This document shows, one piece after another, positions 1,850 through 56,045 of a stretch of DNA of 64,000 nt. The position numbers were made by a program, and so were the translations under genes. How positions within the stretch are numbered: position 1 is the first letter of the stretch; each line of letters begins with the position of its first letter. The stretch is from Arsenophonus sp. GTDB lineage: Bacteria > Pseudomonadota > Gammaproteobacteria > Enterobacterales > Enterobacteriaceae. The notes beneath the pieces were generated by a model, which did not search any database, was not told where the DNA came from, and was given only the letters and a program-made list of their open reading frames with translations. The DNA is taken from the NCBI GenBank assembly GCA_031446105.1, contig CP132907.1:67921-131920 (forward strand), written 5' to 3'.

Positions 1850-2092
1850 ATGGTAATAATCCGTTTAGCTAGATGTGGTGCGAAAAAACGTCCATTTTAT
1901 CAAGTGGTTGTTACAGATAATCGTAATGCACGTGATGGTCGTTTTATTGAACGAATAGGTTTTTTTAACCCAATTGCATCAGGTCGAGCAAAAAAAATAT
2001 TTTTAAAATTAGATCGCATTGATTATTGGATTTCTGTAGGTGCACAAATTTCTAACCGTGTTTTCACGTTAATTAAACAACTAAAAAAATAG
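1850..2092 (+). CDS. rpsP: 30S ribosomal protein S16
   Basis: 80-aa [24 protein letters not shown]...[12 protein letters not shown] matches E. coli S16 ([21 protein letters not shown]...GRFIERVGFFNP, from memory). It is the first gene of the conserved rpsP-rimM-trmD-rplS operon. Confidence 0.97.
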
Positions 2093-2107: not shown

Positions 2108-2649
2108 ATGATTAAAAAAAAAATATCAATTTAATTCATCCAATTGTATTAGGAAGATTAGGTTCAACATATGGAGTTAATGGTTGGATGAAAGTATTTT
2201 CATTTACTGAAAATATTCAAGATATTTTTAATTATCAACCATGGTTTGTTAAATTGTTCAAAGAATGGTACAAATTAGAAATAGAAGATTGGAAATATGA
2301 TAATAAAAATATTTTTATAAAATTTAAAAATATTTATGATAAAGAACATGCTAATTTAATGATTAATTATAAAATTATAGTAGATTCAGCACAGTTTCCT
2401 ATTCTTAAAAATGGTGAATACTATTGGAAAGATTTGATTGGTTGTAAAATTTTTAATACTCAAAGTTATTATTTGGGTTGTGTAACAAATTTAATTGTAA
2501 CAGGAGCAAATGATGTATTAATATCAAAAAACTTTAAAGATTTTTTTGGAATTAAAGAAAGACTAATACCATTTATTTATAAAAAAGTTATAAAGAAAGT
2601 TGATATTAATACTAAAATAATTCAAGTAGACTGGGATCCAAGTTTTTAA
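2108..2649 (+). CDS. rimM: 16S rRNA processing protein RimM, reading frame interrupted at an A10 tract
   Basis: The ORF from ATG 2188 matches RimM ([41 protein letters not shown]). The same frame upstream of that ATG encodes [22 protein letters not shown], matching E. coli PIVLGKMGSSYGIRGW, but it is closed by TAA at 2113-2115. The only upstream ATG (2108) is in another frame and joins across A10 (2114-2123) if one A is added. Length is 542 nt, i.e. 2 mod 3. Confidence 0.8.
2114..2123 (+). repeat. A10 homopolymer at the rimM frame break
   Basis: Ten consecutive A counted directly (attAAAAAAAAAAtatc). An eleventh A gives [16 protein letters not shown]... Confidence 0.9.
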
Positions 2650-2680: not shown

Positions 2681-3423
2681 ATGTGGATTTGGACTATTAG
2701 CTTATTTCCTAAAATGTTTCATGCAATAACAAATTATGGCATAACAAGTCGTGCAATAAAAAAAAAACTATTGAGAATAGAGTGCTCTGATTTAAGAGAT
2801 TATGCTCATGATAAAAGACGTACTGTAGATGATCGTCCTTATGGTGGAGGGCCGGGAATGTTAATGATGTTTCAACCTATTAGGGATGCAATTAATACCG
2901 CAAAATCTTTTATGGGTCGGGATGCTACAGTGATTTATCTTTCACCACAAGGTAGAAAACTAAATCAAAAAGGTATTTTTGAATTATTATTAAAAAAAAA
3001 ATTATTTTAATATGTGGTCGATATCAAGGTATAGATCAAAGAATTATTGAAAGTGAAATTAATGAAGAATGGTCAATAGGTAATTATGTTCTTACTGGTG
3101 GAGAATTAGCTGCAATGGTAATGATTGACGCTATTTCTCGTTTTATTCCTGGTGTTTTAGGTCATAAGCAATCAGCAGCAGAAGATTCTTTTATAACAGG
3201 ATTATTTAATCCACCTTATTATACACGTCCTAAATCATTAGACAACATGGTAGTGCCTGATGTTTTGTTGTCTGGTAATCATAATAAAATTCACCGTTGG
3301 AAAAAAAAACAGGCATTAGGATGTACTTGGCTTAAAAGACCTAAACTTTTGATAAATTTAAAATTAACTCAAGAACAAAAAATGTTGTTATTAGAATTTC
3401 AACAGGAGTATAAAAAAAAATAA
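2681..3423 (+). CDS. trmD: tRNA (guanine37-N1)-methyltransferase TrmD, reading frame interrupted at an A10 tract
   Basis: ORF 2681-3010 matches the TrmD N-terminal half ([30 protein letters not shown]). ORF 3115-3423 matches the C-terminal half ([26 protein letters not shown]). The frame of the second ORF is open back to 3001 and encodes [38 protein letters not shown] (E. coli [38 protein letters not shown]). The two frames meet at A10 (2992-3001). Length is 743 nt, i.e. 2 mod 3. Confidence 0.87.
2992..3001 (+). repeat. A10 homopolymer at the trmD frame break
   Basis: Ten consecutive A (ttaAAAAAAAAAAtta). One extra A gives ...[17 protein letters not shown]... Confidence 0.9.
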
Positions 3424-4156: not shown

Positions 4157-4426
4157 TTGTTAGAATTATTAAAATTACGTAAAAAAATAGATAAAATTGA
4201 TACATTATTATTAAAATTATTAGCAAAAAGAATAAAATTAGCAACGATAATTGGCGAAATTAAATGGAAAAAAGGATTGCCAATTTGTGAAAGAGAACGT
4301 GAAAATAAAATTTTGGAATTACGACGTAAAGAAGCACAAAAAATAGGTATTTCAGCTGATTTAATAGAAGATATTTTACGTCGTATTATATGTGAATCTT
4401 ATAAGTATGAACAAAAAAAAATATAA
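4157..4426 (+). CDS. tyrA: stand-alone chorismate mutase domain (N-terminal fragment of tyrA; the prephenate dehydrogenase domain is missing)
   Basis: 89 codons with a TTG start, AAGG 10 nt upstream and an in-frame TAA at 4142. LELLKLRKKIDKIDTLLLKLLAKRIKLATIIGEIKWKKGLPI...DLIEDILRRIICESYKYEQKK aligns without gaps to E. coli TyrA residues ~4-92 ([42 protein letters not shown]...DLIEDVLRRVMRESYSSENDK). It sits at the syntenic tyrA position between rplS and bamD. No ORF or recognisable similarity follows it. Confidence 0.72.
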   Translation: MLELLKLRKKIDKIDTLLLKLLAKRIKLATIIGEIKWKKGLPICERERENKILELRRKEAQKIGISADLIEDILRRIICESYKYEQKKI

Positions 4427-13194: not shown

Positions 13195-14972
13195 GTGATT
13201 TATAATTACTTTTAATTTAAAATTTATAATTGTTTTTAATTTAAATTAAGTAAAAAAATTATTTTTATTATATAAAATTAATATTATATTTTATTATAAT
13301 TTGTCATATTATTTTAATGCAGAGATATTTTTAAAAATATGAATTTATTATAATGATATTTTTTATAAATTTATGTACAAGTTTTTAAAAATTTTAATTA
13401 TTTTTTAATAAATTTTTATAAATTTAAATTATCAGAATTTTTTATCGTTTCTTAATAAGTATAAAGATTTATTTTTAAAATATTATTAAATATAGAATAA
13501 ATTTATTTGCATAATATTAATTAATATTATTTTTGCAATAATTAAAAAATTTATTAAAAAAATAAATGTTTTTCTTAAAATAAAATGGGTTAATTTTATT
13601 AAGTAAAAAAATTTGTTTTTTTATTTATTAAATCTAATAATTTTTTTAAAATTGGTAAGTTATTTTTATTTTTATCTTAAAATATAATTTTTTAATAATT
13701 TATTTTTTAATTTTTTAATGGAATTAGTATTTTTTTATTAAATATATTATAGAATATTTTTTATTTTATATTATAAATATTTTAGTATTTATTAATTTTA
13801 ATTTTTAATAGTTTAAGGTGATTTAATTTATATTTTTTTAAAATATCAGAAAAAATAGTAATTAAGATATGTATAATTTTTTTATTTATGTTTAAAATAG
13901 ATTTTTAATCTATTTTATTATATTTTAATTAGTTAATTAACAGTGTGTTTTTATGTTAGTTTAAGATTTTTCTTAAATTAAAATTTTTATAATTTTGATT
14001 AGATTATACTTAATTTTTATATTTTTTTCTAAAATTTTATTTCATTATTCTAATTAATATAAATAATTTTATAGTAAAATAATAATTTTCATGGATTATA
14101 AGAGATTTTTTATAACATTTTTTTAATTAAAAATTTTAATCATTTAAAATCTATAAAAAATTAAAAAAATAAGTTTTAAGAATTAAAATTAAAATATTTT
14201 ATTAAAAATTATTATTTTTATTTATTTTTATATTTTAATTTATTTTTTTTCTTAGAAAATAATTTTAATATTAGTTTTTTATAAAAAATATTTGATATAT
14301 AAATATTATATTTTTTTAAAAATAAATTTTGCTGTATTTTTATTATAGTATTTTCAAGTTTGTAATATTACTATTTGCAGTGGTTCTTTTATAATATATA
14401 ATTATTTAATAATTATTACTTAATTTTTTAAAAAATAAAGTAATATTAAAAATAATATTTTTTTTGCATAATTTATTATAAAATTTTTTATATTTAAAAA
14501 AATATTGGTTTAGCTTATTTTTTATCTATAAATAAAAAATTTTATCTATGTGTATTATTATTTATGATATCATAGTTTCAGTTATATTAAATTCATAAAA
14601 TTTAAGAAAATAAATAATAAAAAAATTAAAAAAAATTATATTTTAAAATTAATATTATTTTTCTTATATAAATTATTGCATATTATTTTTTTTGCTTTAT
14701 GTTATATTAAAACAGTTTTTAACCCAGAGATTTATTTTTTTCGGTTGATGCTTAATATTACTTTTAATTTATATTTAAAATATTATTTTTTATTGATTAT
14801 ATAAAATTTTATGTTAATCATTAATTTTGTTATATTTAATCTAAAAATATTTAATTATTTTTTAAAAACATATGTAATTTTCTAATTATAGAAAATACTG
14901 CACAATTTCTAATAAAATTCATAGTATAAAAATAATTTAATATAATATTGTTTATTTAGATTTTTTTTATTT

Positions 14973-15047
<75 letters not shown>

Positions 15048-15089
15048 TTTTATTTAATATTTTTTTATTTTTTAATTAAATGGTTTTAT

Positions 15090-15166
15090 GGTGGCTATAG
15101 CTCAGTTGGTAGAGCTCCGGATTGTGATTCCGGTTGTCGTGGGTTCGAATCCCATTAGTCACCCCA
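15090..15166 (+). tRNA. hisR: tRNA-His (anticodon GUG)
   Basis: Has the extra 5' G(-1) typical of tRNA-His. The anticodon arm is CCGGA-TTGTGAT-TCCGG and the T loop is GGGTTCGAATCCC. CCA is encoded. It is close to E. coli hisR. Confidence 0.92.
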
Positions 15167-15203
15167 ATAATTTATTTTTACATTTATTTTGTTTATTTTT
15201 TTT

Positions 15204-15290
15204 GCGATTGTGGCGGAATGGGTAGACGCACTAACTTCAGATGTTAGTATTCTTTTTATGAATTTAGGGGTTCAAGTCCCCTCTTTCGCA
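15204..15290 (+). tRNA. leuT: tRNA-Leu (anticodon CAG), long variable arm, acceptor stem with two mismatches
   Basis: Type II tRNA. D region is TGGCGGAATGGGTAGACGC, anticodon arm is CTAAC-TTCAGAT-GTTAG, variable stem is ATTC/GAAT, and T arm is AGGGG-TTCAAGT-CCCCT. The acceptor GCGATTG pairs with CTTTCGC, leaving T5-T68 and T6-T67 unpaired. It occupies the leuT position in the argX-hisR-leuT-proM order. Confidence 0.72.
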
Positions 15291-15347
15291 TAATAAATTG
15301 TAAATTTATTAATATAATAAGTGGTATGATAATAAAAAAATCTTTTT

Positions 15348-15424
15348 CGGCGAGTAGCGCAGGTTGGTAGCGCAACTGGTTTGGGACCAGTAGGTCGGAG
15401 GTTCAAATCCTCTCTCGCCGACCA
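15348..15424 (+). tRNA. proM: tRNA-Pro (anticodon UGG)
   Basis: Perfect acceptor CGGCGAG/CTCGCCG. The anticodon arm is CTGGT-TTGGGAC-CAG..., the T loop is GGTTCAAATCC, and CCA is encoded. It is almost identical to E. coli proM. Confidence 0.92.
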
Positions 15425-16479
15425 TAATAAAATACATTTTGTTATTTTTTGATTTTTATTTTTTATTATATAGGAATTATTTTTATTATAAATTTGTAAT
15501 TTTTATTACAGTTGATATGATAAAAAAATATTTTTTAATATCAGATTATAATAAAATATATTATATAGAATATAAAAATATCGGTAAAAATTTATTCTTT
15601 ATAATTTTTTTATTATTTTTTTTAAATTAAAAAATTATCAACTTTATATTATAAGATATAATTAAAATAAATTAAAAACAATTTTTTATAAAATTTAATA
15701 GATTATTTTTAAATTTGTAATAATTATGAATATAAATACTTTATTTATTTTTTTAAAATATTAATTGTATTACTATTAATAATTTTATTATAAAATAAAT
15801 TTTATTTTTTTTAAAATTTTTATTAGTATTTTTTAAGTTATTAAAAAATATTAATTTTATTTTATTTTTTTTAATATATTAAATATAATTTATAAAATTA
15901 TTAATTTACAAAATGCTTTAATTAAAAAGCATAATTTTTAGTACATTTATCTGTTTTGATTGATTTTTAATCAAAATTAATTATCACATATTAGTGAAAT
16001 ATGTACTAAAAAAATAGATAATAAAACAACAAACAAGATTGATGATCTTTTTTAATTAGATTAAAAAATAACTAAATTTAATATTTTTTTTATTAGCTAA
16101 AATAATTTTTTTAATATTTTTATTTTAAAATATTTTTATTTTGACATTATATTTGAAATAATTTTATATCATATTTTGTTATTTAATATTTATAACAATT
16201 TATAAAATAATCAATATTATTTTTCGTAATTTTAATATTTTTGCAATTAATTCTTGTTTACTATTTTCTTAATAATAAAAATTTTTTAGAAATTGCAAAA
16301 AAGATAATACGAGGAATGTTTATTTTTTTGGATCTTTAAATTAATAAATTAATTAATATTTTAAAGATTTTTTTTGTTTTTGAATGTTATATTTTTTAAT
16401 ATAATAAGTCATTATGCCATTTTTTGAATTGTAACAATTTTGATTAATAAACTATAAAAATAATTATTTAATTTAATTA

Positions 16480-17420
16480 TGTGTACAAGTTTTTTTTAAT
16501 TTATATTTTGTTTTGTAATTAATATTTTTCTTAATTTTATTTTATATTTTTTTATTCTTTATCATTAAATATTTTTTTTATAAGTTTAGTATTTGTCTTT
16601 GTAAATTTTCTATGTTTTAAATTTTTTTTTACTAAAATAATTTTACTAAAATTTGAAAAAACTGATAAGTGTTTTTATCTAAATATTTTTCAAAAGTATA
16701 ATTATACATTTTAACTTGATAACTATTTCTAAAATATAATTAAAAATTTATTTTTTTAAATAAAGACAAAAATTTTATAATAATGTAATGATTTTAAAAA
16801 GTATAATAATTTTTAAGGTAATATTCTATATCAATAGTAGTTTATTTAAAATTGCAGAAAATATTTTTTTAAATATAATGGTAATGCGTATTTGTTTTTT
16901 TAAACCAAATCTCTTAAGAAAAGCGACAAAAAAATAAAGTATTATTTAATTTATTTAGTTTTATTTTTAATATCTTTTAAATCTTTTAAAAAATAAGTGC
17001 AAAAAGAAATGAGGCATTTTGTATTGACGATATAAACTCAATTTTTTTATAGTATTGCTGATAATTAATAAATTTTTAGATAAAGAATTTATGAATATTT
17101 CTTTTTATAAAATATATTGCAATATTGGTTTCTTTATTTAGCAATGCATTTTCTATTTTTTAACAAATAAACTTTTTCTACTAATTTTTTTATATAGAAA
17201 AGTATTTATAAAAAATAATTATCTTGAATAATTATTGAAATAATTTAAATTTTTAATTTTATATGATATTTTTCTATATTTTTATAAAATATTTTTTTTA
17301 AAGTTTTAATAAACTTTTTCTATATAGTTATATTTAGTTTTTTAGTAAAAAACTAAATTTTTTATGAAAGTGAAAGTTACATTTAAATTATTAAGTGATT
17401 TAATTAAATTTAAAAAAATT
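16480..17420 (-). pseudogene. hemC: eroded relic of porphobilinogen deaminase gene hemC (boundaries approximate)
   Basis: The minus-strand translation of 16933..16868 is FFVAFLKRFGLKKQIRITIIFK. E. coli HemC has LAVAGLKRLGLESRIRAAL (from memory), giving 9 identities in 19 positions with no stop over 22 codons. Flanking codons are riddled with stops. Position and strand fit the E. coli order proM...hemYXDC(-) cyaA(+) cyaY lptM dapF. Confidence 0.4.
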
Positions 17421-18594
17421 CATATTTTTAGTTATTTTTAAGTATTTTATATAATTTTAATAAAATATATCATCTTTAATAAAATTATTTTTTTTATTAA
17501 AGACTATTTTATATAAAATATAAATCTATTAAAATACATAAAATATGAAGTATCATAAAAAATTTTTTATATATTTAATATATTTATTTTAATAAATAAT
17601 CTTTATTTTTTATTTATAAAAATTATCATATCTGTTTATTTCTATTTTTTTAAATATTATTATTTTTTATTTAATTAAATTTGACAATAAATTAAATTAT
17701 TTTATAATTTTTTTATATTCTTATATTTAGATTTTTAATAAAAAATATATTTATTTATAAATAATTAATTAATAAAAATATCATATTTTAAGTTCAATTA
17801 TTTTAAAAATATTTATTTATTTTTAAAAATTTAAAATTAAAATATATTTATGCTATTCTAAAATTAGAAATTAAAATATTATTTATATAATCAATATGTT
17901 GTTTTTGAATATTTTAAATACTTAAATATTAAAAAATTTTAAATTAAAAAAAATAATAATTTAATTTTATTTAATAAATTTTAGAATTTATAATTCTTAA
18001 TTTATATTTTTATTATTAATTTAAAATAAAAATTATTAAATTAATAAAAGTAATATTTTTTATTTACAGAATTTTAATTTATAATAAAAATAACAATGTT
18101 TTATATTTTTAAATAAAATTTAATAAATATTTTTTAAATATATTTCTTATAAAAAATGTATTATTTAGTATAGTCTAAAGTAATTTTTATGTAATTTTTT
18201 GTGAATTAATAAATAAATATTTATATATATTAAACATCGATTATTAATTATTTTTGTTGTATTTTAGATTTTTAGAAATGTAATAATTTAATAAATTTTA
18301 AATAATTTATGATATTAAAATATAATTAAAATTTTTAATTTAAGAATTTTAGTATTTTTTTTAAATAGTTAAAAAAATTTGTAAAAATATTAAAAAATAA
18401 TGTATTTAATTTTTTATTATTTTTTGATTAGTTTTTTTAACTATATTTTTTTAAAAAAAGTATTTTTACAATAAATGATTTTTTATTTATTAATTTATTA
18501 AATTATTTTATGATTATTTAATATCATGATTATTTATATTAATATCATTTTTTTGTTTATTTTTAACTTTAAAAACATAAAGGGTAAAAAAATA

Positions 18595-36156: not shown

Positions 36157-37125
36157 TTATATTTTTTTTGCAATTAAAATAGCTCGTATTGGAGCAGGAT
36201 ATCCTTCTATTGTTAAATTATGATTTTCTGGTTTAAGAAAGTCTTCCAGTGATTCATTTTTCATCCAGAGTGTTTTTCTTTGTTCTTGTATTGTTGTTGG
36301 TGTTTGATTTATAATTTTTATATCGTAAAATCTGCATTTTTTTAACCAAATTTTTAACATTTTTGCTGATGGGATGAAATATACATTGCGCATTTTAGCA
36401 TAACGTTCAGTAGGTATCAAACATTGATTTTCATCACCTTCAATCACTAAACTTTCTAATATTATTTCACCATCTGAAACTAGTTGATTATTTATTTTAT
36501 ACAAATGTTCTAATGGTGAACGGGAATGATAAATAACACCCATCGAAAATACTGTATCAAATATATTCGATACAGGCAGTTGTTCAATAGTTAATGGCAA
36601 TAAATTTATTTTTTGAATGTTACCAAGTAATTTACGAATCGCTTCAAATTGATATAAAGATTTTTCGATAGGATCAATTCCTACTATAAATTTTGCATTT
36701 TCACCCAGTATTCTCCACATGTAATATCCATTACCACATCCTACATCAAGTACTAATTTATTTTTTAATGTTGAAATATAAGGGATTATACGCTGCCATT
36801 TTAAGTTTGATTGCCATTCACTATCAATTTTAATACCATATATAGAAAATGGACCTTTACGCCATGGCATTAACTTTTTTAATAATTGAATAATTTTTTT
36901 CATATCTTTTAAAGAAAGATTTACTTTTTTTTTTGCAATAATTCCTGTTTTTAGATTTATATAATCTGGTGTTATTTTTGGTAAATTATATACTATTTTT
37001 TTCCAATATTGAGATTGTTTATTTTGTTTTTTTTTCCATTGTTCAATTTGATATGGTATAGTTTTTAGCCAAATACTCAGTGGTCCAAGAGCTATTTTTT
37101 GATAAAAAAATCCAAAGTTTATCAT
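36157..37125 (-). CDS. cmoB: tRNA U34 carboxymethyltransferase CmoB
   Basis: 322 aa. PWRKGPF, LDVGCGNGYY.WR, G.DP, FSMGV.YH.RSP..HL and RNVYFIPS match E. coli CmoB. Its ATG overlaps the cmoA stop (ATGA). Confidence 0.94.
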   Translation of the reverse strand: MINFGFFYQKIALGPLSIWLKTIPYQIEQWKKKQNKQSQYWKKIVYNLPKITPDYINLKTGIIAKKKVNLSLKDMKKIIQLLKKLMPWRKGPFSIYGIKIDSEWQSNLKWQRIIPYISTLKNKLVLDVGCGNGYYMWRILGENAKFIVGIDPIEKSLYQFEAIRKLLGNIQKINLLPLTIEQLPVSNIFDTVFSMGVIYHSRSPLEHLYKINNQLVSDGEIILESLVIEGDENQCLIPTERYAKMRNVYFIPSAKMLKIWLKKCRFYDIKIINQTPTTIQEQRKTLWMKNESLEDFLKPENHNLTIEGYPAPIRAILIAKKI

Positions 37126-37876
37126 TTGTTTTGTGCTTTAATGGCTAAGAATGAACCGAAATTAAAATATTGAAAGTATAATTCGTAATGCTGGAAACCA
37201 GCTATATTTAATCTTGATTTGTGTTTTTTTATTGAATCAGTAATCATAATATTATCTAACATTTTTTTTTTTGATGAATTTCTTTTATACTGTATCCATT
37301 AGCAAGTTTAAAATCATAATGCATATTAAATAATAAATTATGAATTTTTTTGTCATTAAAACTAAATTTTTCTGATAATACCAATAATCCGCCAGGATTT
37401 AAACCTTTATAAATGCGATTAATTAATCTTTGACGTTTTATTGGAGTAATGAATTGTAATGTAAAATTCAAGACTACCATGGAAGCATTTTTTATTTTTG
37501 TATTAAGAATATCTTCTAAAATTATTTCAACAGGTATTTTTGTTTTGTAAGCATATAGATATTTTTTGCAAAGTTTAATCATGGATTTTGAATTATCAAT
37601 AGCAAGTATTTTATAGTTTTTTAAATTACTATTACAAAGTATTGATAGTGTTACTGCTCCTAAAGAGCAACCTAAATCATAAACAAAACTGTTAGGTGTT
37701 ATAAAATATTTTGCTAACATTCCTATTATGCTAAGAATATCAGTATATCCAGGAATAGAACGTTTTATCATATCAGGAAAAATTTTTGCAATTTTTTCGT
37801 TAAATTCCCAATTATCTAAGTTTTTAATAGGTTTTATAAATAAAATATCTTTTTTTGTTATTTTTTTTTTAATCAT
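37122..37876 (-). CDS. cmoA: carboxy-S-adenosyl-L-methionine synthase CmoA, reading frame interrupted at an A11 tract
   Basis: ORF 37876..37256 matches CmoA residues 1-~205 ([60 protein letters not shown]). After A11 (plus-strand T11, 37262-37272) another frame encodes [47 protein letters not shown]. coli has [48 protein letters not shown]. That frame ends in a TGA overlapping the cmoB ATG. Length is 755 nt, i.e. 2 mod 3. Confidence 0.87.
37262..37272 (-). repeat. A11 homopolymer (T11 on the plus strand) at the cmoA frame break
   Basis: Eleven T counted on the plus strand (ctaacaTTTTTTTTTTTgatg). A twelfth A in the mRNA gives ...[13 protein letters not shown]... Confidence 0.9.
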
Positions 37877-48855: not shown

Positions 48856-50267
48856 AAAATAAGATAATTTTTATAGCCGAATATTTATTATGAATATTAA
48901 TTTATTATTTTTAATAATAGTTAAGATATTTATAAAAAATAAAGAAAAATGAATTATTATATTTACTTCTTTAAAATATAAAATTTTAGATTATTTAAAA
49001 TAGCAATATAATTAATAAACTAATAATAGTTATTTGATATAAATATTTTTTAATTTTTTTTAAAATTAATAAAAAATATTATTAATTTTATACTTTTTTA
49101 GATAACATTTAAAATGTTAAATATTTTTTGCATTTTAGAAAAAATTATATGAATATTCTTTATATGTATATCAATAAAAAATATTAAAATTAATTTATTT
49201 TAAATATTAATTTGATTACATTAATTATATTTATTAATTTTAATGATAAAAGTTTAATAGTAAAATATTTTGTATAGTATATTTTTTATATAAATTATTT
49301 TTTATAAATTTATAAAATATATTAATTTTAATTTTTTAATAAAAATTAGAAAAAATAAAAAAAATATAAAATTATATAAAAATAATATTTATTATAAGCT
49401 ATGAAAATATAAATTAAAAAGGATTATATGTATATTTTAAAAATTTATATTTTTAATTTAAAATATTTTATAATAAAAAATATTTTTATTTAAATAATTA
49501 TAAAAATTAAAAATATTTTATTTCATAATTATTAATTTTAATAAACTAATAATATATTTTTATTAAAAAATTATTATTTTAAAATATATTTTTGAATATA
49601 ATATTATTTTTTTTACATTATTTTTTTAGTTACTATAATAATATAAAATATTGTTAATAAATATAAAAATAGTTTTTTGTTTTTTTAATTGATTTAAATT
49701 TATTATGATTATTCTTTAAACTATAAAATCTTTAAAGATATTATAATTTTTCTTAAAAATAAAATTAGATAGTTTATTTTTTTTGTTTTATAAAAATTAT
49801 ATTTTATATTATTTTTTAATTATATTTTTTATTTTAATAACCATGAAAAATATGTAATAAGTTTTTAAAATATTGTAAGATAAATTACATAAGTAATATT
49901 AAAATTATATTATTAATTATTTAGATTTTATTATTTTATTATAAAAAATATAAATAATAATTTTTAATTTTTTTATTGGTTACAATTATAAAAGGGTAAT
50001 GCATAATATTTTTAAATTTACTATAAATATAAAATATTTTTTTGATATATAAAATTATATAATGTAGTAGTACATTTTTAGAAAAAAAATTTTAATTTTT
50101 AAAGTTATTTGTAAATAGTTAAAATTAAATTAATAAAATAAATATATATTATATAAAAAATTTTCATTAAAAAATATAAAGATTTAATCTTAAAGTTTTT
50201 AATAAAGTATTTTTACAATATAATTTTATTAAATTATTAATATTGCAATAGTTATATGGAGTTAATT

Positions 50268-51125
50268 ATGAGCAAATTATTGATTATTTTATTAATATTG
50301 ACGATGATCATTGGTTGCTCTTCTAAAAAAAATATTATTGATAAAGGTAATTATTATATAGATCAGTCTTTTTCTTCTATTAGTCAAAATCATAGAATTA
50401 AATTTTTGATATTTCATTATACAGTAGTGAATGATGTCAGATCATTAGATCTTTTAACTCAAAGTCAAGTAAGTGCTCATTATCTTATTCTTAAACATCT
50501 TAAAATAAAAAATGGAAAACCAGTAATTTTTAATTTGGTTCCAGAAAATAAAAAAGCTTGGCATGCAGGTTTGAGTAATTGGGATGGAAAATTAAATATT
50601 AACCATACTTCTATTGGTATAGAAATAGTTAATACAGGATTTACTGAAGATTTATTTGGGAGAAAAATATGGTATCCATTTACAGAAAAACAAATTTCTG
50701 CAATTATTTTTTTGGCTAAAGATATCATAAAAAAATACAATATTTCTCCTGTTAATGTTTTAGCACATAGTGATATTGCTCCCTTAAGAAAGTATGATCC
50801 AGGAAAATTTTTTCCTTGGAAACGGTTAGCTGCATTTGGTATTGGTGCTTGGCCAGATGAGGTAACGGTTAAAAAATATTTAGCAGGTCGACCTCCATAT
50901 TCTCTTGCTAACGTATTAGTAATTCAAAAACAATTAAAAAAATATGGATACGATAAAATTCCTCAATCAGGTGAACTTGATGAAGAAACACGTAAAATTA
51001 TTAGTGCATTTCAGCTGCATTTTCGTCCAATGGATATCAGCGGTAATCCAGATGCTGAAACAGAAGCCATTGCTTGTGCATTAGTTGAAAAATACAGAAC
51101 CCCAAGTATTAAAGTTACGGTATAA
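50268..51125 (+). CDS. amiD: N-acetylmuramoyl-L-alanine amidase AmiD-type lipoprotein (Amidase_2 plus a peptidoglycan-binding-like C-terminus)
   Basis: Lipobox MIIGCSS. It is colinear with E. coli AmiD (RIKFLIFHYT, QVSAHYL, GKP.IF.LVPE...AWHAG.S.W.G...LN.TSIGIE..N.G, LAKDII..Y.I.P.NV.AH.DIAP.RK.DPG..FPW..LA..GIGAWPD, FQ.HFRP, DAET.AIA.AL.EKY). I moved the start to ATG 50268 because GGAG (50258-50261) lies 6 nt upstream. Confidence 0.88.
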   Translation: MSKLLIILLILTMIIGCSSKKNIIDKGNYYIDQSFSSISQNHRIKFLIFHYTVVNDVRSLDLLTQSQVSAHYLILKHLKIKNGKPVIFNLVPENKKAWHAGLSNWDGKLNINHTSIGIEIVNTGFTEDLFGRKIWYPFTEKQISAIIFLAKDIIKKYNISPVNVLAHSDIAPLRKYDPGKFFPWKRLAAFGIGAWPDEVTVKKYLAGRPPYSLANVLVIQKQLKKYGYDKIPQSGELDEETRKIISAFQLHFRPMDISGNPDAETEAIACALVEKYRTPSIKVTV

Positions 51126-52505: not shown

Positions 52506-55500
52506 AGATTTTTTTGCCTTAAATTTTTAAAATGATATTAAATATATTGACATTTAATAATTAATAATATTATTTAATAATTATTTTATGGGATATTTTA
52601 AATATTGATATAATTTTTATTTTTTTGTTTTTAAATATTTATATTTTATATGATTAGAAAATATTAATATCTTGTAATTATTATAAATAAATTTATTATT
52701 TTTATGATATAATTGATATAATTATTTTTTACAATATTTTTAATTTTGTAAAAATTATGTTTAGTGTAGATATTTTATTTTTTTTGGCATATATCATAAA
52801 ATCTGTATAATTAAAATAAAAATAAAAATTTTTATTTATTCAAAAAATAAGTTTTATATATAAAATTATATTTTTTAAAATGTGTTTAAGATATTATTAA
52901 ATATAAAAATATAAAAAATATTTTATTTTTTCAGGAAATAATGTTTTTTATATAAAAAAATATGAATATAATATTAATTTATATTTAATTTTGAATATGA
53001 TATAAATATAAAGCTTATATTATATAAAAATATTTTGTATAAAAAGTATTTGATTATCATAAAAAAATATTCAATTTAATTAATATTAATATCTTTGATT
53101 AGTATTTGACTAGTATTTTTTTTAAGATGAAAAGATGTGGTTATGTTTTTTTATGTCTGACATTATTTTATTGATATATTTTTATTAATTATTTTAGTTT
53201 AAATTTATAATATTTTTTATATTTTTTTAAGTTCTTCATATAATCTAAAAAATAATTATATTTATTGATTATTTTTAACTTTTTTTATCATTTTTTATTA
53301 ATTTTTTTCTAGAAAGTATTGGATAGATAATTTTATTTTATCCTAATATTTTTTTATTTTTTAATTAGAATATATAATATTCTTAAAAATTTATATTGTA
53401 AATCACTAAAATTATATTTTATTTTAATATTTTTTTATTAATATATAAAGTGACACAAATAAAAAAATAAGTTTCTAATTGTTGACTATAGTTATTAATA
53501 GGATTTGTTTTAAACTCAATTCCTAAATTAAAATTTTTTTTAGCATCTGTAATTTAAAAATATTTTATCAATTCTTCTATCTAAATTTTGTTATTTTTAA
53601 ATCAAATAAAATAAATATAAAAAGATAATTCTGTTATTATATATTTTGTTAATGTATTTATTTTAAATAATTTTTATTCGATATTATTAAAAATAAATAA
53701 ATAGTTAATGTTTTGTATAGAAATTTAATAATTAATAAAAATATTTTTTATTTTATCTTTATTTTTTTTATATTAATTTTATAATAAAATTTATATTTTA
53801 TTTAGGTATATTATTTTTTTAAAAAATATAGGAATATTCTGTATTTAAAAAAATATAAAATATATCTAAAAAATAATATAAAATTTATTATTTATTAAAT
53901 ATTACACAAAAAAAATATTAATTATTTTATATTTTTTATTAAATTTTAATATTTTTGTATTATGTAGAAAATTTATTTGAATGGTTTTTTAAAATTAATT
54001 ATTTAAAAAAAACTTATGATTTTATTATAAAAATATATTTTCAGTATAATTTTTAATAAAATTTTATTAAATATTTTTGATATTTTTTATAAAAAATTAT
54101 ACTTATTTATACTTTTTTATTAAAAATAAACTAATTTAGTTATCAATTATTATTAAATGCAATACTTTTTTTATAATAAAATATTTTTTATTGGATATTT
54201 TTTAAATAAATTATTAAGAAGGGTTATTATTTTTTTAAATAATGTTTAAATTATATGATATAAAAATATCATTTTAGTTACTTTTTTAAAAATTAAAAAA
54301 TAAATTAACTAAAAGTTTTATATAAAAACTTAAAAAATAATATAAATCAAATCATTTTAATAAATATAAAAAATACCTTTTTATGAATTTTTTTTCAAAA
54401 ATATTTTATAATTAGAATCAATATTTATTTAAATATTAAAATAGTTATTTTTGGAATACATAATGAAAATGATTAACTTATTTGTCAATTTTTACTATGA
54501 TAGATTGAAAATAATTGCAATAAATTTCATTAAAAAGTTTCAGATGGTTTTACATGTTTATTAACATTATTTATTTTTGTTATTGATTATTCCATGTCGT
54601 TTTTTTAGTTTATCTTAAGTAGTAAAAATGATGCCATTATTAGATTTTATTTATACAATTTTGTCTGGTTGAGGTTGTTGTATTTTCTCTTTAGTATTCA
54701 TGATTTTTATAATAAACAATTAGATTTACCAGTTATTATAGATATTTTATTAATTATTTCAGTTGTTTTAGTTATTAATTTAGTTTTTTATATTTTTTTT
54801 TATTAATTCAGTAATATATTTTATTTTATAATTTTTTTATATAATTAAGGAAAATATTAATAATAGTTATTAATTACTATTATATATTTTTTTAAAAATC
54901 AAAATACTCTCATTTTTTAAAAATAAAATATTTTTTATATATCAATATTTTTGTTTATTTTACGTTATTTAATTTTTGAAATCATAAATTATAAATATGA
55001 TTTAAAATAATAAATATTTTTTATAAAACCTGATCTATTTTTATATTTATTAAAAAATGAATAATTAAAATTAAATAATTTATATTTACTATAAATGAAA
55101 AAATAAAAATTTTAAAAATTTTATAATTTATATATAAATTTATAATATATTAAATTTATACTTTTTGTAGTTAGATATTTTATAATTAGTCATTAATAAA
55201 ATTATAAATACATAAAAATCTTTGCTTATTTTAAATATATAAATAGATTAGATAGTTATTTTTACTGGATATAGATCTTTTAATGAAGATAGATATAATA
55301 TACAATAATTTTTTTATAAAAAACAAAATATTTAATGTAAGCAATATTTTTTAAAATTTTGATTTTATTTTTTAGTACATTTATTAGATAAATATTATTT
55401 TTTTAATATAAATCAAATGCTTTAAAAAGATTTTTTTTATTTTGTAGTTTTTATTATATTTTTTATAGATTATCTAAAGTGCAGTACTTATTTCTTTGTT

Positions 55501-56045
55501 GTTATATTTTAATTTTTAATATACTAAAAATATTATCATTAAATTACAAAATATTACTATTTTTATTATTACAGAAAAAAACATTTTTAAAATATCAGCT
55601 TTAATATTAAATATTCTATTAGATTTAATATTTTTTTATAGTTAATTTTCTTAAAAAATTATTAAGGAAATTAATTTTTTACAAATAAAAAAATTATTAA
55701 AGTAATCATTAAAAAACAATATTTAGGTATTTGTATTGATTTATTTTAAATAAAAAATATTTTTATTTTCTTTATAATAAAAATAGTAATTTTAATAAAA
55801 AATTGTTGATTTTTAGAAAATATATTTGAAATATAATCAATATTTTTTACGTTCTGCATAAATAATTTTTATACTTATTCTAATATTTTTTAATTATATT
55901 AACATAAAATCAAAAATTTTTGAAAATTTTATGTAGATTATAAAAATAAAATATCAAATATTTTATTAAAAATTGTGCGTTAATATTTGATTTTTGTTAT
56001 AATAAACCATTTTATGTTAATAAAAAGTTTTAAGATTTACTTTTT

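Follow-up and report, generated by a model that had tools for sequence, protein, structure and literature searches.

Possible slippage rescue of a frame-broken rimM gene at a poly(A) tract in an Arsenophonus genome

How is RimM made when the start codon of its gene lies in another reading frame than the body of the protein? This question is raised by the rimM gene of an Arsenophonus sp. genome (GenBank assembly GCA_031446105.1), taken here as that of the symbiont of the louse fly Ornithomya biloba, in which a run of ten adenines (A10) stands between the ancestral start codon and a frame-shifted coding sequence. The gene lies in a stretch of 64,000 nucleotides (nt) of contig CP132907.1 (positions 67,921 to 131,920 of the forward strand), which is called the window below; coordinates without a contig label are positions in it. 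Rescue of the frame break by slippage at the A10 tract, mostly during transcription, is the explanation put forward here, and the analysis as a whole gives it an even chance of being correct. Support comes from the neighbouring gene trmD, whose clade-wide, relocated frame break is a more remarkable part of the picture than rimM itself.

The rimM start and the upstream codons

The gene rpsP (1850-2092, plus strand), encoding ribosomal protein S16, is the first gene of the operon rpsP-rimM-trmD-rplS, as seen from the list of open reading frames (ORFs) and from alignment with relatives. Its stop codon TAG (2090-2092) is separated by 15 nt from ATG 2108-2110, which is followed on the same strand by ATT (2111-2113) and exactly ten As (2114-2123), the proposed slippage site. 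Unslipped mRNA encodes from this ATG a short ORF of 8 codons, MIKKKISI* (2108-2134), which ends at TAA 2132-2134. The RimM frame is closed upstream by TAA 2113-2115. The following 24 codons of this frame (2116-2187, plus strand) code for the first strands in the N-terminal domain of RimM and contain no ATG, GTG or TTG; from the first in-frame ATG, at 2188, a body of 153 amino acids (aa; 2188-2649, plus strand) comprises the rest of the N-terminal domain and the PRC barrel. The frame of ATG 2108 joins the RimM frame only if one nucleotide is added (A11) or if the ribosome shifts by -1. An earlier note on this DNA, prepared from its letters, had described both the closed, start-less frame and this geometry, and the coordinates and translations agree with it on each count. 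Read through with A11, rimM encodes a protein of 180 aa with 84% identity to that of its closest relative. No Shine-Dalgarno sequence precedes rimM.

The comparison set consisted of the best RimM relatives, four reduced Arsenophonus genomes of 0.92-0.94 Mb. Three were taken as the symbionts of O. fringillina (K20; L004/L007), Crataerina hirundinis (K22b; L001/L005) and O. avicularia (L003), and the fourth, from a separate project, as that of O. chloropus (L002/L006/L008). In all four, rimM starts at a homologous ATG located 15 nt past the rpsP stop codon, and the protein begins with M-[I/V]-K-K-K, encoded on an in-frame A9 followed by G. Because the four relatives annotate the rimM start at this homologous ATG, which is invariant in the five genomes, ATG 2108 is the ancestral start; the earlier note had regarded it as the plausible one, and the relatives bear this out. 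That note had also proposed comparing the tract across related strains. When this was done, rimM of the relatives was found in frame with A9, and that of the window alone was broken.

The K20 sequence reads A9-GATTTTTTTA-TCAAT where the window reads A10-TA-TCAAT, which amounts to a net loss of 7 nt and a broken frame. Were the tract A11, the change relative to K20 would consist of one G-to-A substitution and a clean in-frame deletion of 6 nt. On this alignment, either an A11 had newly arisen and shrank by 1 nt as the last step, or the assembly recorded the tract one base too short.

The identity of the protein is indicated by the gene order rpsP-rimM-trmD-rplS together with a RimM N-terminal domain followed by a PRC barrel. 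The read-through protein matches the Pfam families PF01782 (75.5 bits), PF24986 (42.7 bits) and PF05239 (32.6 bits), and it is matched by 3H9N, the solved structure of Haemophilus RimM (E = 1.9e-61). When the upstream codons are included, the Pfam score of the RimM N-terminal domain rises from 49.9 to 75.5 bits (+25.6) and the covered part of the profile grows from 15-83 to 2-83. In the read-through protein, residues 13-27 align to residues 3-17 of 3H9N, 15 residues that belong to the structured N-terminal domain. Judged by these profile and structure alignments, the upstream codons are genuine RimM sequence and no chance open stretch, which upholds the earlier note in placing a conserved RimM N-terminus upstream of ATG 2188. 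The open stretch of 24 codons is not significant by itself at a content of guanine and cytosine (GC) of about 20%, where by estimate about 9% of such stretches are expected to be free of stops. The same note had argued that the conservation of about 20 codons shows that the protein is still made; this argument is weak, as the break is seen in this genome only and could have arisen recently.

Broken genes and poly(A) tracts in the window

The gene trmD (2681-3423, plus strand) contains two A10 tracts. It is in frame at tract 1 (2758-2767) and broken next to tract 2 (2992-3001), where TTAATT of all relatives is TTATT in the window, one A having been lost 2 nt past the tract. One A added to the window gene gives a TrmD of 247 aa. 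In the four relatives, tract 1 is A9 (L001:3660-3668; L002:3657-3665; L003:3675-3683; L004:4635-4643), and translation stops after AIKKNY. A single added A yields a TrmD of 245-247 aa in all five genomes. In the lineage of the O. biloba symbiont, the frame was thus regained at tract 1 and lost at tract 2. A search of 5.8 billion proteins found no intact TrmD of this clade. A TrmD is absent from the record for four of the five genomes, and that of the O. chloropus symbiont is a product of 217 aa with a TTG start; all other Arsenophonus TrmD proteins are of about 251 aa. The assembly of the O. chloropus symbiont, which appears from its OZ accession to be of the PacBio/Darwin Tree of Life type, has its trmD A9 spanned by a contig of 151 nt from a second run that shows no difference.

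The trmD gene is essential in nearly all bacteria. Among the four frameshifted relatives, the ratio of the proportions of non-synonymous and synonymous differences (pN/pS) is 0.15 upstream of the break (28 codons) and 0.19 downstream, and the pairwise ratio of non-synonymous to synonymous substitution rates (omega) is 0.14-0.20, with a synonymous divergence (dS) of up to 0.43. As the gene is out of frame throughout the clade and both of its halves are equally constrained, its expression must bridge the break. In this Arsenophonus clade, rescue by slippage is very probably at work, since trmD is frame-broken in five genomes and yet under strong purifying selection as judged from the compared sequences.

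A third gene, cmoA (37125-37876, minus strand), is broken at an A11 tract (37262-37272 in plus-strand coordinates). The tract reads A10-[C/T]-A and is in frame in K20 and in the O. chloropus symbiont, whereas the window lacks the interrupting pyrimidine. With one added A, the gene encodes a CmoA of 251 aa with 87% identity to that of K20 over 100% of its length. The downstream gene cmoB (36157-37125) is intact. MIKKK opens both rimM (2108-2123) and cmoA (37861-37876, minus strand), with a run of A9-A10 directly after the start codon; an A-rich gene start may help initiation in an AT-rich genome.

Runs of 8 nt or more were scanned for frame changes, and all window ORFs were searched by family; of about 40 genes, exactly three are broken once, namely rimM, trmD and cmoA. 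Each carries a single ±1 break at, or not more than 3 nt from, a sense-strand poly(A) run of at least ten, each requires one additional A, and in each the homologous ORF is otherwise full-length. By length of the sense tract, breaks occur at 0 of 17 A9, 2 of 10 A10 and 1 of 1 A11 tracts of window genes. The remaining eight A10 tracts are in frame, as are 20 runs of nine (17 sense A9 and 3 sense T9).

Illumina NovaSeq 2x250 reads, assembled with SPAdes, underlie the genome sequence (PMC10654098). Among the sequencing runs searched, none was found to contain this genome: the word shares were 0.02-0.11, and the matching pieces were short and AT-rich or came from a relative at 92-96%. Nor did the search turn up an RNA run for this genome or for the O. 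chloropus symbiont. Homopolymer error of the Nanopore type was considered as a general cause and rejected, given the Illumina 2x250/SPAdes origin and the other in-genic runs of nine and ten that are in frame; for the same reasons, systematic under-calling of homopolymers is unlikely.

Long runs were also counted outside genes. The non-coding part of the window (26.5 kb, 10.4% GC) holds 166 runs of 7, 79 of 8, 9 of 9 and none of at least 10. Between 12 and 26 runs of the last class were expected, and none of 500 shuffles was without one. The window has 11 runs of at least 10 in total, and every one is a sense-strand poly(A) tract within a gene. This pattern suggests that slippage is contraction-biased and is held back by selection for frame alone. 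In the O. chloropus symbiont, two runs that reach 10 or more do occur in non-coding DNA (L002:1558-1567 and L002:2385-2395).

Slippage at rimM and the alternatives

In the proposed mechanism, the genomic break at A10, 6 nt past the ancestral start codon of rimM, would be bypassed in the mRNA. Ribosomes would begin at ATG 2108, and this initiation would be coupled to the end of rpsP, which lies 15 nt upstream. RNA polymerase would slip backwards on the ten Ts of the template and place an eleventh A in a fraction of the mRNA, and full-length RimM would be translated from that A11 fraction; -1 ribosomal slippage or sliding on the A-run could contribute. In this genome, slippage would also rescue trmD and probably cmoA; in the four relatives, it would do so for trmD. 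The yield of RimM would be below that of an intact gene, which could be tolerable for a low-demand assembly factor encoded in a highly transcribed ribosomal-protein operon. In Escherichia coli, the levels of RimM and TrmD are many-fold below those of S16 and L19 of the same operon, and a reduced yield of both should therefore be tolerable. We infer both the slippage at rimM and the continued need for RimM.

RNA polymerase slips on runs of about nine or more A or T residues, adding nucleotides and changing the frame (PMC5009743). In Buchnera transcripts, 151 of 157 insertions were located in homopolymeric A/T runs, most of them of a single nucleotide, and their frequency rose exponentially with run length (PMC5574713). 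The share of corrected transcripts of poly(A)-frameshifted genes in Buchnera and Blochmannia is put at 12-50% in the passage of PMC5009743 that cites Tamas 2008, and at about 30% in PMC3017870. Backward slippage of RNA polymerase is favoured as the main route because the breaks need one additional nucleotide, insertions in Buchnera cluster in A/T runs and correction of 12-50% is reported.

Several points weigh against a rescued rimM. The break is confined to this genome among the five and may be recent. On the window branch, rimM has 6 synonymous and 17 non-synonymous changes (omega about 0.63), as compared with 5 and 7 in each of the sisters K20 and K22b (omega about 0.31); the counts are small and the contrast is not significant, and the substitution pattern is compatible with some relaxation of constraint. 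Among the transcript errors recorded for Buchnera pseudogenes, none brought a reading frame back (PMC5574713). A complete RimM domain could also be obtained from ATC 2125 or ATT 2134, and a true A11 would, on the alignment with relatives, give the gene a simple history. The earlier note had invoked slippage of the Buchnera and Blochmannia type, and this is partly supported. Rescue in this clade gains ground from trmD, broken across the clade and yet constrained; for rimM, the substitution counts and the uniqueness of the break are points on the other side.

Decay is the first of the alternatives. On this reading, rimM would be newly broken and heading to loss, with at most a non-functional truncated protein made from ATG 2188. 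The gene is non-essential in E. coli, and cmoA is non-essential as well. The break is found in this lineage only, the higher omega on the window branch points the same way, the genome is the smallest of its cluster (874,825 bp as against 919-936 kb; PMC10654098), and the 41% of the window that is gene-less at 10.4% GC implies extensive gene loss. Other observations speak against decay. A second lesion is absent across 180 codons at about 20% GC. The replacements specific to the window protein are conservative (I/V, K/R, L/F, Q/K, S/T), and three of them, which lie in the N-terminal segment, shift towards residues of other RimM proteins. The difference in omega comes from small counts, and the neighbouring trmD shows that poly(A) breaks with a single lesion do persist under selection in this clade. 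A start at M28 would moreover cut off the residues that align to positions 3-17 of the structured domain. Decay of rimM is unlikely.

Initiation at a non-AUG codon would supply RimM from ATC 2125 or ATT 2134 with no change of frame. Three near-cognate codons, ATC 2125, ATT 2134 and ATT 2143, lie in the RimM frame upstream of ATG 2188, and the stop codon of MIKKKISI* overlaps AUU 2134-2136 (UAAUU), so that reinitiation after the 8-codon ORF is possible. In the alignment to 3H9N, the residues needed for the RimM domain extend only from about I13 onward, and a complete RimM is therefore possible from either codon; Haemophilus RimM itself begins only 2 residues ahead of the segment aligned at I13, which makes the leader dispensable, and the leader differs in length and sequence among the relatives. 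The RimM protein on record for this genome (P0001; 2125-2649, 174 aa) begins MNLIHP, with ATC 2125 read as methionine. Neither ATC 2125 nor ATT 2134 is preceded by a purine stretch resembling a Shine-Dalgarno sequence, and the homologous codons are ordinary internal I or T codons in the relatives; a near-cognate codon with a spaced ribosome-binding site and conservation as a start was thus not found at rimM. AUU, AUC and AUA starts in E. coli reach roughly 1% or less of AUG efficiency, far under the 12-50% correction by slippage quoted above. The internal breaks of trmD and cmoA would also stay unexplained, as a frame change is needed there in any case. Non-AUG initiation is thus quite unlikely to be the source of RimM.

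A rescue by translation alone, through a -1 shift on A AAA AAA or ribosome sliding on the lysine-coding A-run, is decidedly unlikely, although the heptamer (2116-2122) is in the correct phase with the frame of ATG 2108 and all three window breaks are of the -1 type. Iterated AAA codons let ribosomes slide in E. coli systems (PMC4363877). A hairpin can be drawn at 2135-2192, with an outer stem of 11 bp in which UUCAUCCAAUU is paired with GGUUGGAUGAA and AUG 2188 is buried (-15.5 kcal/mol, z = -2.1). It begins 12 nt past the tract, whereas structures that stimulate -1 frameshifting usually lie 5-9 nt downstream; its arms are mismatched in all relatives, and it is probably due to chance. There is no room for an upstream stimulator resembling a Shine-Dalgarno sequence, as the ATG lies only 6 nt before the tract, and no structure follows the tracts of trmD (z = 0.03) or cmoA (z = -1.0). 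What experiments have demonstrated in insect symbionts is transcript heterogeneity. Of the earlier note's suggestion of -1 slippage on this heptamer, the phase is borne out, whereas stimulators are lacking and the one hairpin is badly spaced and not conserved. Polymerase slippage at the A10 tract is preferred, with the ribosome as a possible contributor.

The least probable alternative is that the genomic tract is A11, under-called in the assembly, or is a mixture of A10 and A11 produced by replication slippage in a polyploid symbiont: A11 would leave a clean in-frame 6-nt deletion and one substitution relative to the closest relative, all three window breaks are one A short and stutter in the polymerase chain reaction favours contraction, but the Illumina 2x250 assembly with SPAdes, the in-frame state of eight A10 tracts and of all 20 nine-base runs in window genes, the position of the missing trmD base outside the homopolymer (TTAATT to TTATT), the identity of the missing cmoA base as a pyrimidine that interrupts the run in relatives and the second run confirming the trmD A9 break of a relative all speak against it. 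The argument that a lesion outside the homopolymer excludes a miscall of length holds for trmD and partly for cmoA; it was withdrawn for rimM, where A11 gives the clean 6-nt deletion.

Known systems, genome context and meaning

Frameshifts at poly(A) tracts in Buchnera aphidicola and Blochmannia are reportedly rescued by transcriptional slippage, as described by Tamas et al. in 2008 (PNAS 105:14934). Poly(A) frameshifts with slippage rescue in Blochmannia were treated by Williams and Wernegreen 2010 (PMC3017870). Rescue of this kind is already established for both symbionts, and the Arsenophonus case adds to a known phenomenon. The words "frameshift" and "homopolymer" do not occur in the text of the genome paper of the clade (PMC10654098).

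The present genome resembles those of Buchnera and Blochmannia in being that of an AT-rich, vertically inherited insect endosymbiont, in carrying single ±1 lesions in or next to sense poly(A) runs of at least 9-10 in genes that are otherwise intact and in having frameshifts shared between species without further decay, here in trmD. Information-processing genes are hit in both (dnaX, dnaG and pth there; rimM and trmD here), and independent breaks of one gene at different tracts, as in trmD, are known from ytfM of Blochmannia (PMC3017870). Arsenophonus of hippoboscid louse flies differs in representing a younger symbiosis, with 41% of the window non-coding, and in the density of broken genes, 3 per 64 kb as against 4-8 per whole genome in Blochmannia (PMC3017870). 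The rimM tract occupies codons 3-5, right after the start, which makes non-AUG initiation a live alternative, one that is closed to frameshifts inside a gene. Transcript heterogeneity accompanies the breaks in Buchnera and Blochmannia, whereas those described here are known from genome sequence.

Programmed -1 frameshifting as in dnaX, where A AAA AAG is aided by a Shine-Dalgarno element and a stem-loop, shares with rimM an in-phase slippery heptamer of lysine codons, of the form X XXY YYZ, and the -1 direction. At rimM, however, neither an upstream G-containing stretch nor a conserved downstream structure was found, the hairpin being 12 nt off and mismatched in relatives. The relatives are in frame at this site, which is thus not conserved as a frameshift, and the shift would be needed for the sole product and not for a second one. 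In Thermus dnaX, Shigella mxiE and spa13 and insertion sequence (IS) elements, slippage of the polymerase on A/T runs likewise shifts the frame, but those sites show conservation and yield defined products or ratios (PMC5009743). With a trmD tract that differs by lineage and a rimM break in one genome, the lesions described here look like tolerated damage. AUU initiation of infC has its counterpart in the ATC and ATT codons that precede the conserved domain in its own frame, and in the start of P0001 at ATC 2125, whereas the rimM codons lack a Shine-Dalgarno sequence, conservation as starts and any known regulatory logic. A bolder proposal holds that poly(A) slippage at trmD is obligatory and has been long maintained in the Ornithomya/Crataerina clade, and that the out-of-frame A-runs of rimM and trmD form a heritable low-expression setting that is selected and not merely tolerated; this is unlikely.

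The GC content of the window is 20.5% overall, 27.6% in genes and 10.4% in the non-coding part, which makes up 41%. Coding sequence accounts for about 59%, and several stretches of 1-5 kb at about 10% GC are gene-less (13195-18525, 52506-56045 and others); one of them holds only four tRNA genes (14972-15424). A search of the whole window with Rfam detected six tRNAs only, with no known frameshift or leader element and no rRNA in the gene-less stretches. A scan for promoters and terminators was uninformative, with 23 promoter-like sites as compared with 22 expected and 0 terminators. The gene pheA (4157-4426) is reduced to an ORF of 89-90 aa for the chorismate mutase domain (CM_2), and the prephenate dehydratase part is absent; the size of this ORF is kept in relatives (L001:5058-5330, L002:5002-5274, L003:5004-5276). 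An ORF of 289 aa (50256-51125) has a weak, partial match to AmpD, an anhydro-N-acetylmuramyl-L-alanine amidase (86.6 bits against a cut-off of 143, residues 65-192), and may be a diverged or decaying gene.

Automatic pipelines treat breaks of this kind inconsistently, TrmD being mostly unrecorded and RimM being recorded from ATC. If the proposed rescue is real, rimM, trmD and cmoA should not be scored as lost in reconstructions of metabolism or translation capacity. Slippage rescue would then extend from the old symbionts of aphids and ants to the younger, independently reduced Arsenophonus of louse flies, and trmD, an essential gene broken in five of five genomes with an omega of about 0.15, would provide a natural test bed for the level of slippage on which a cell can live.

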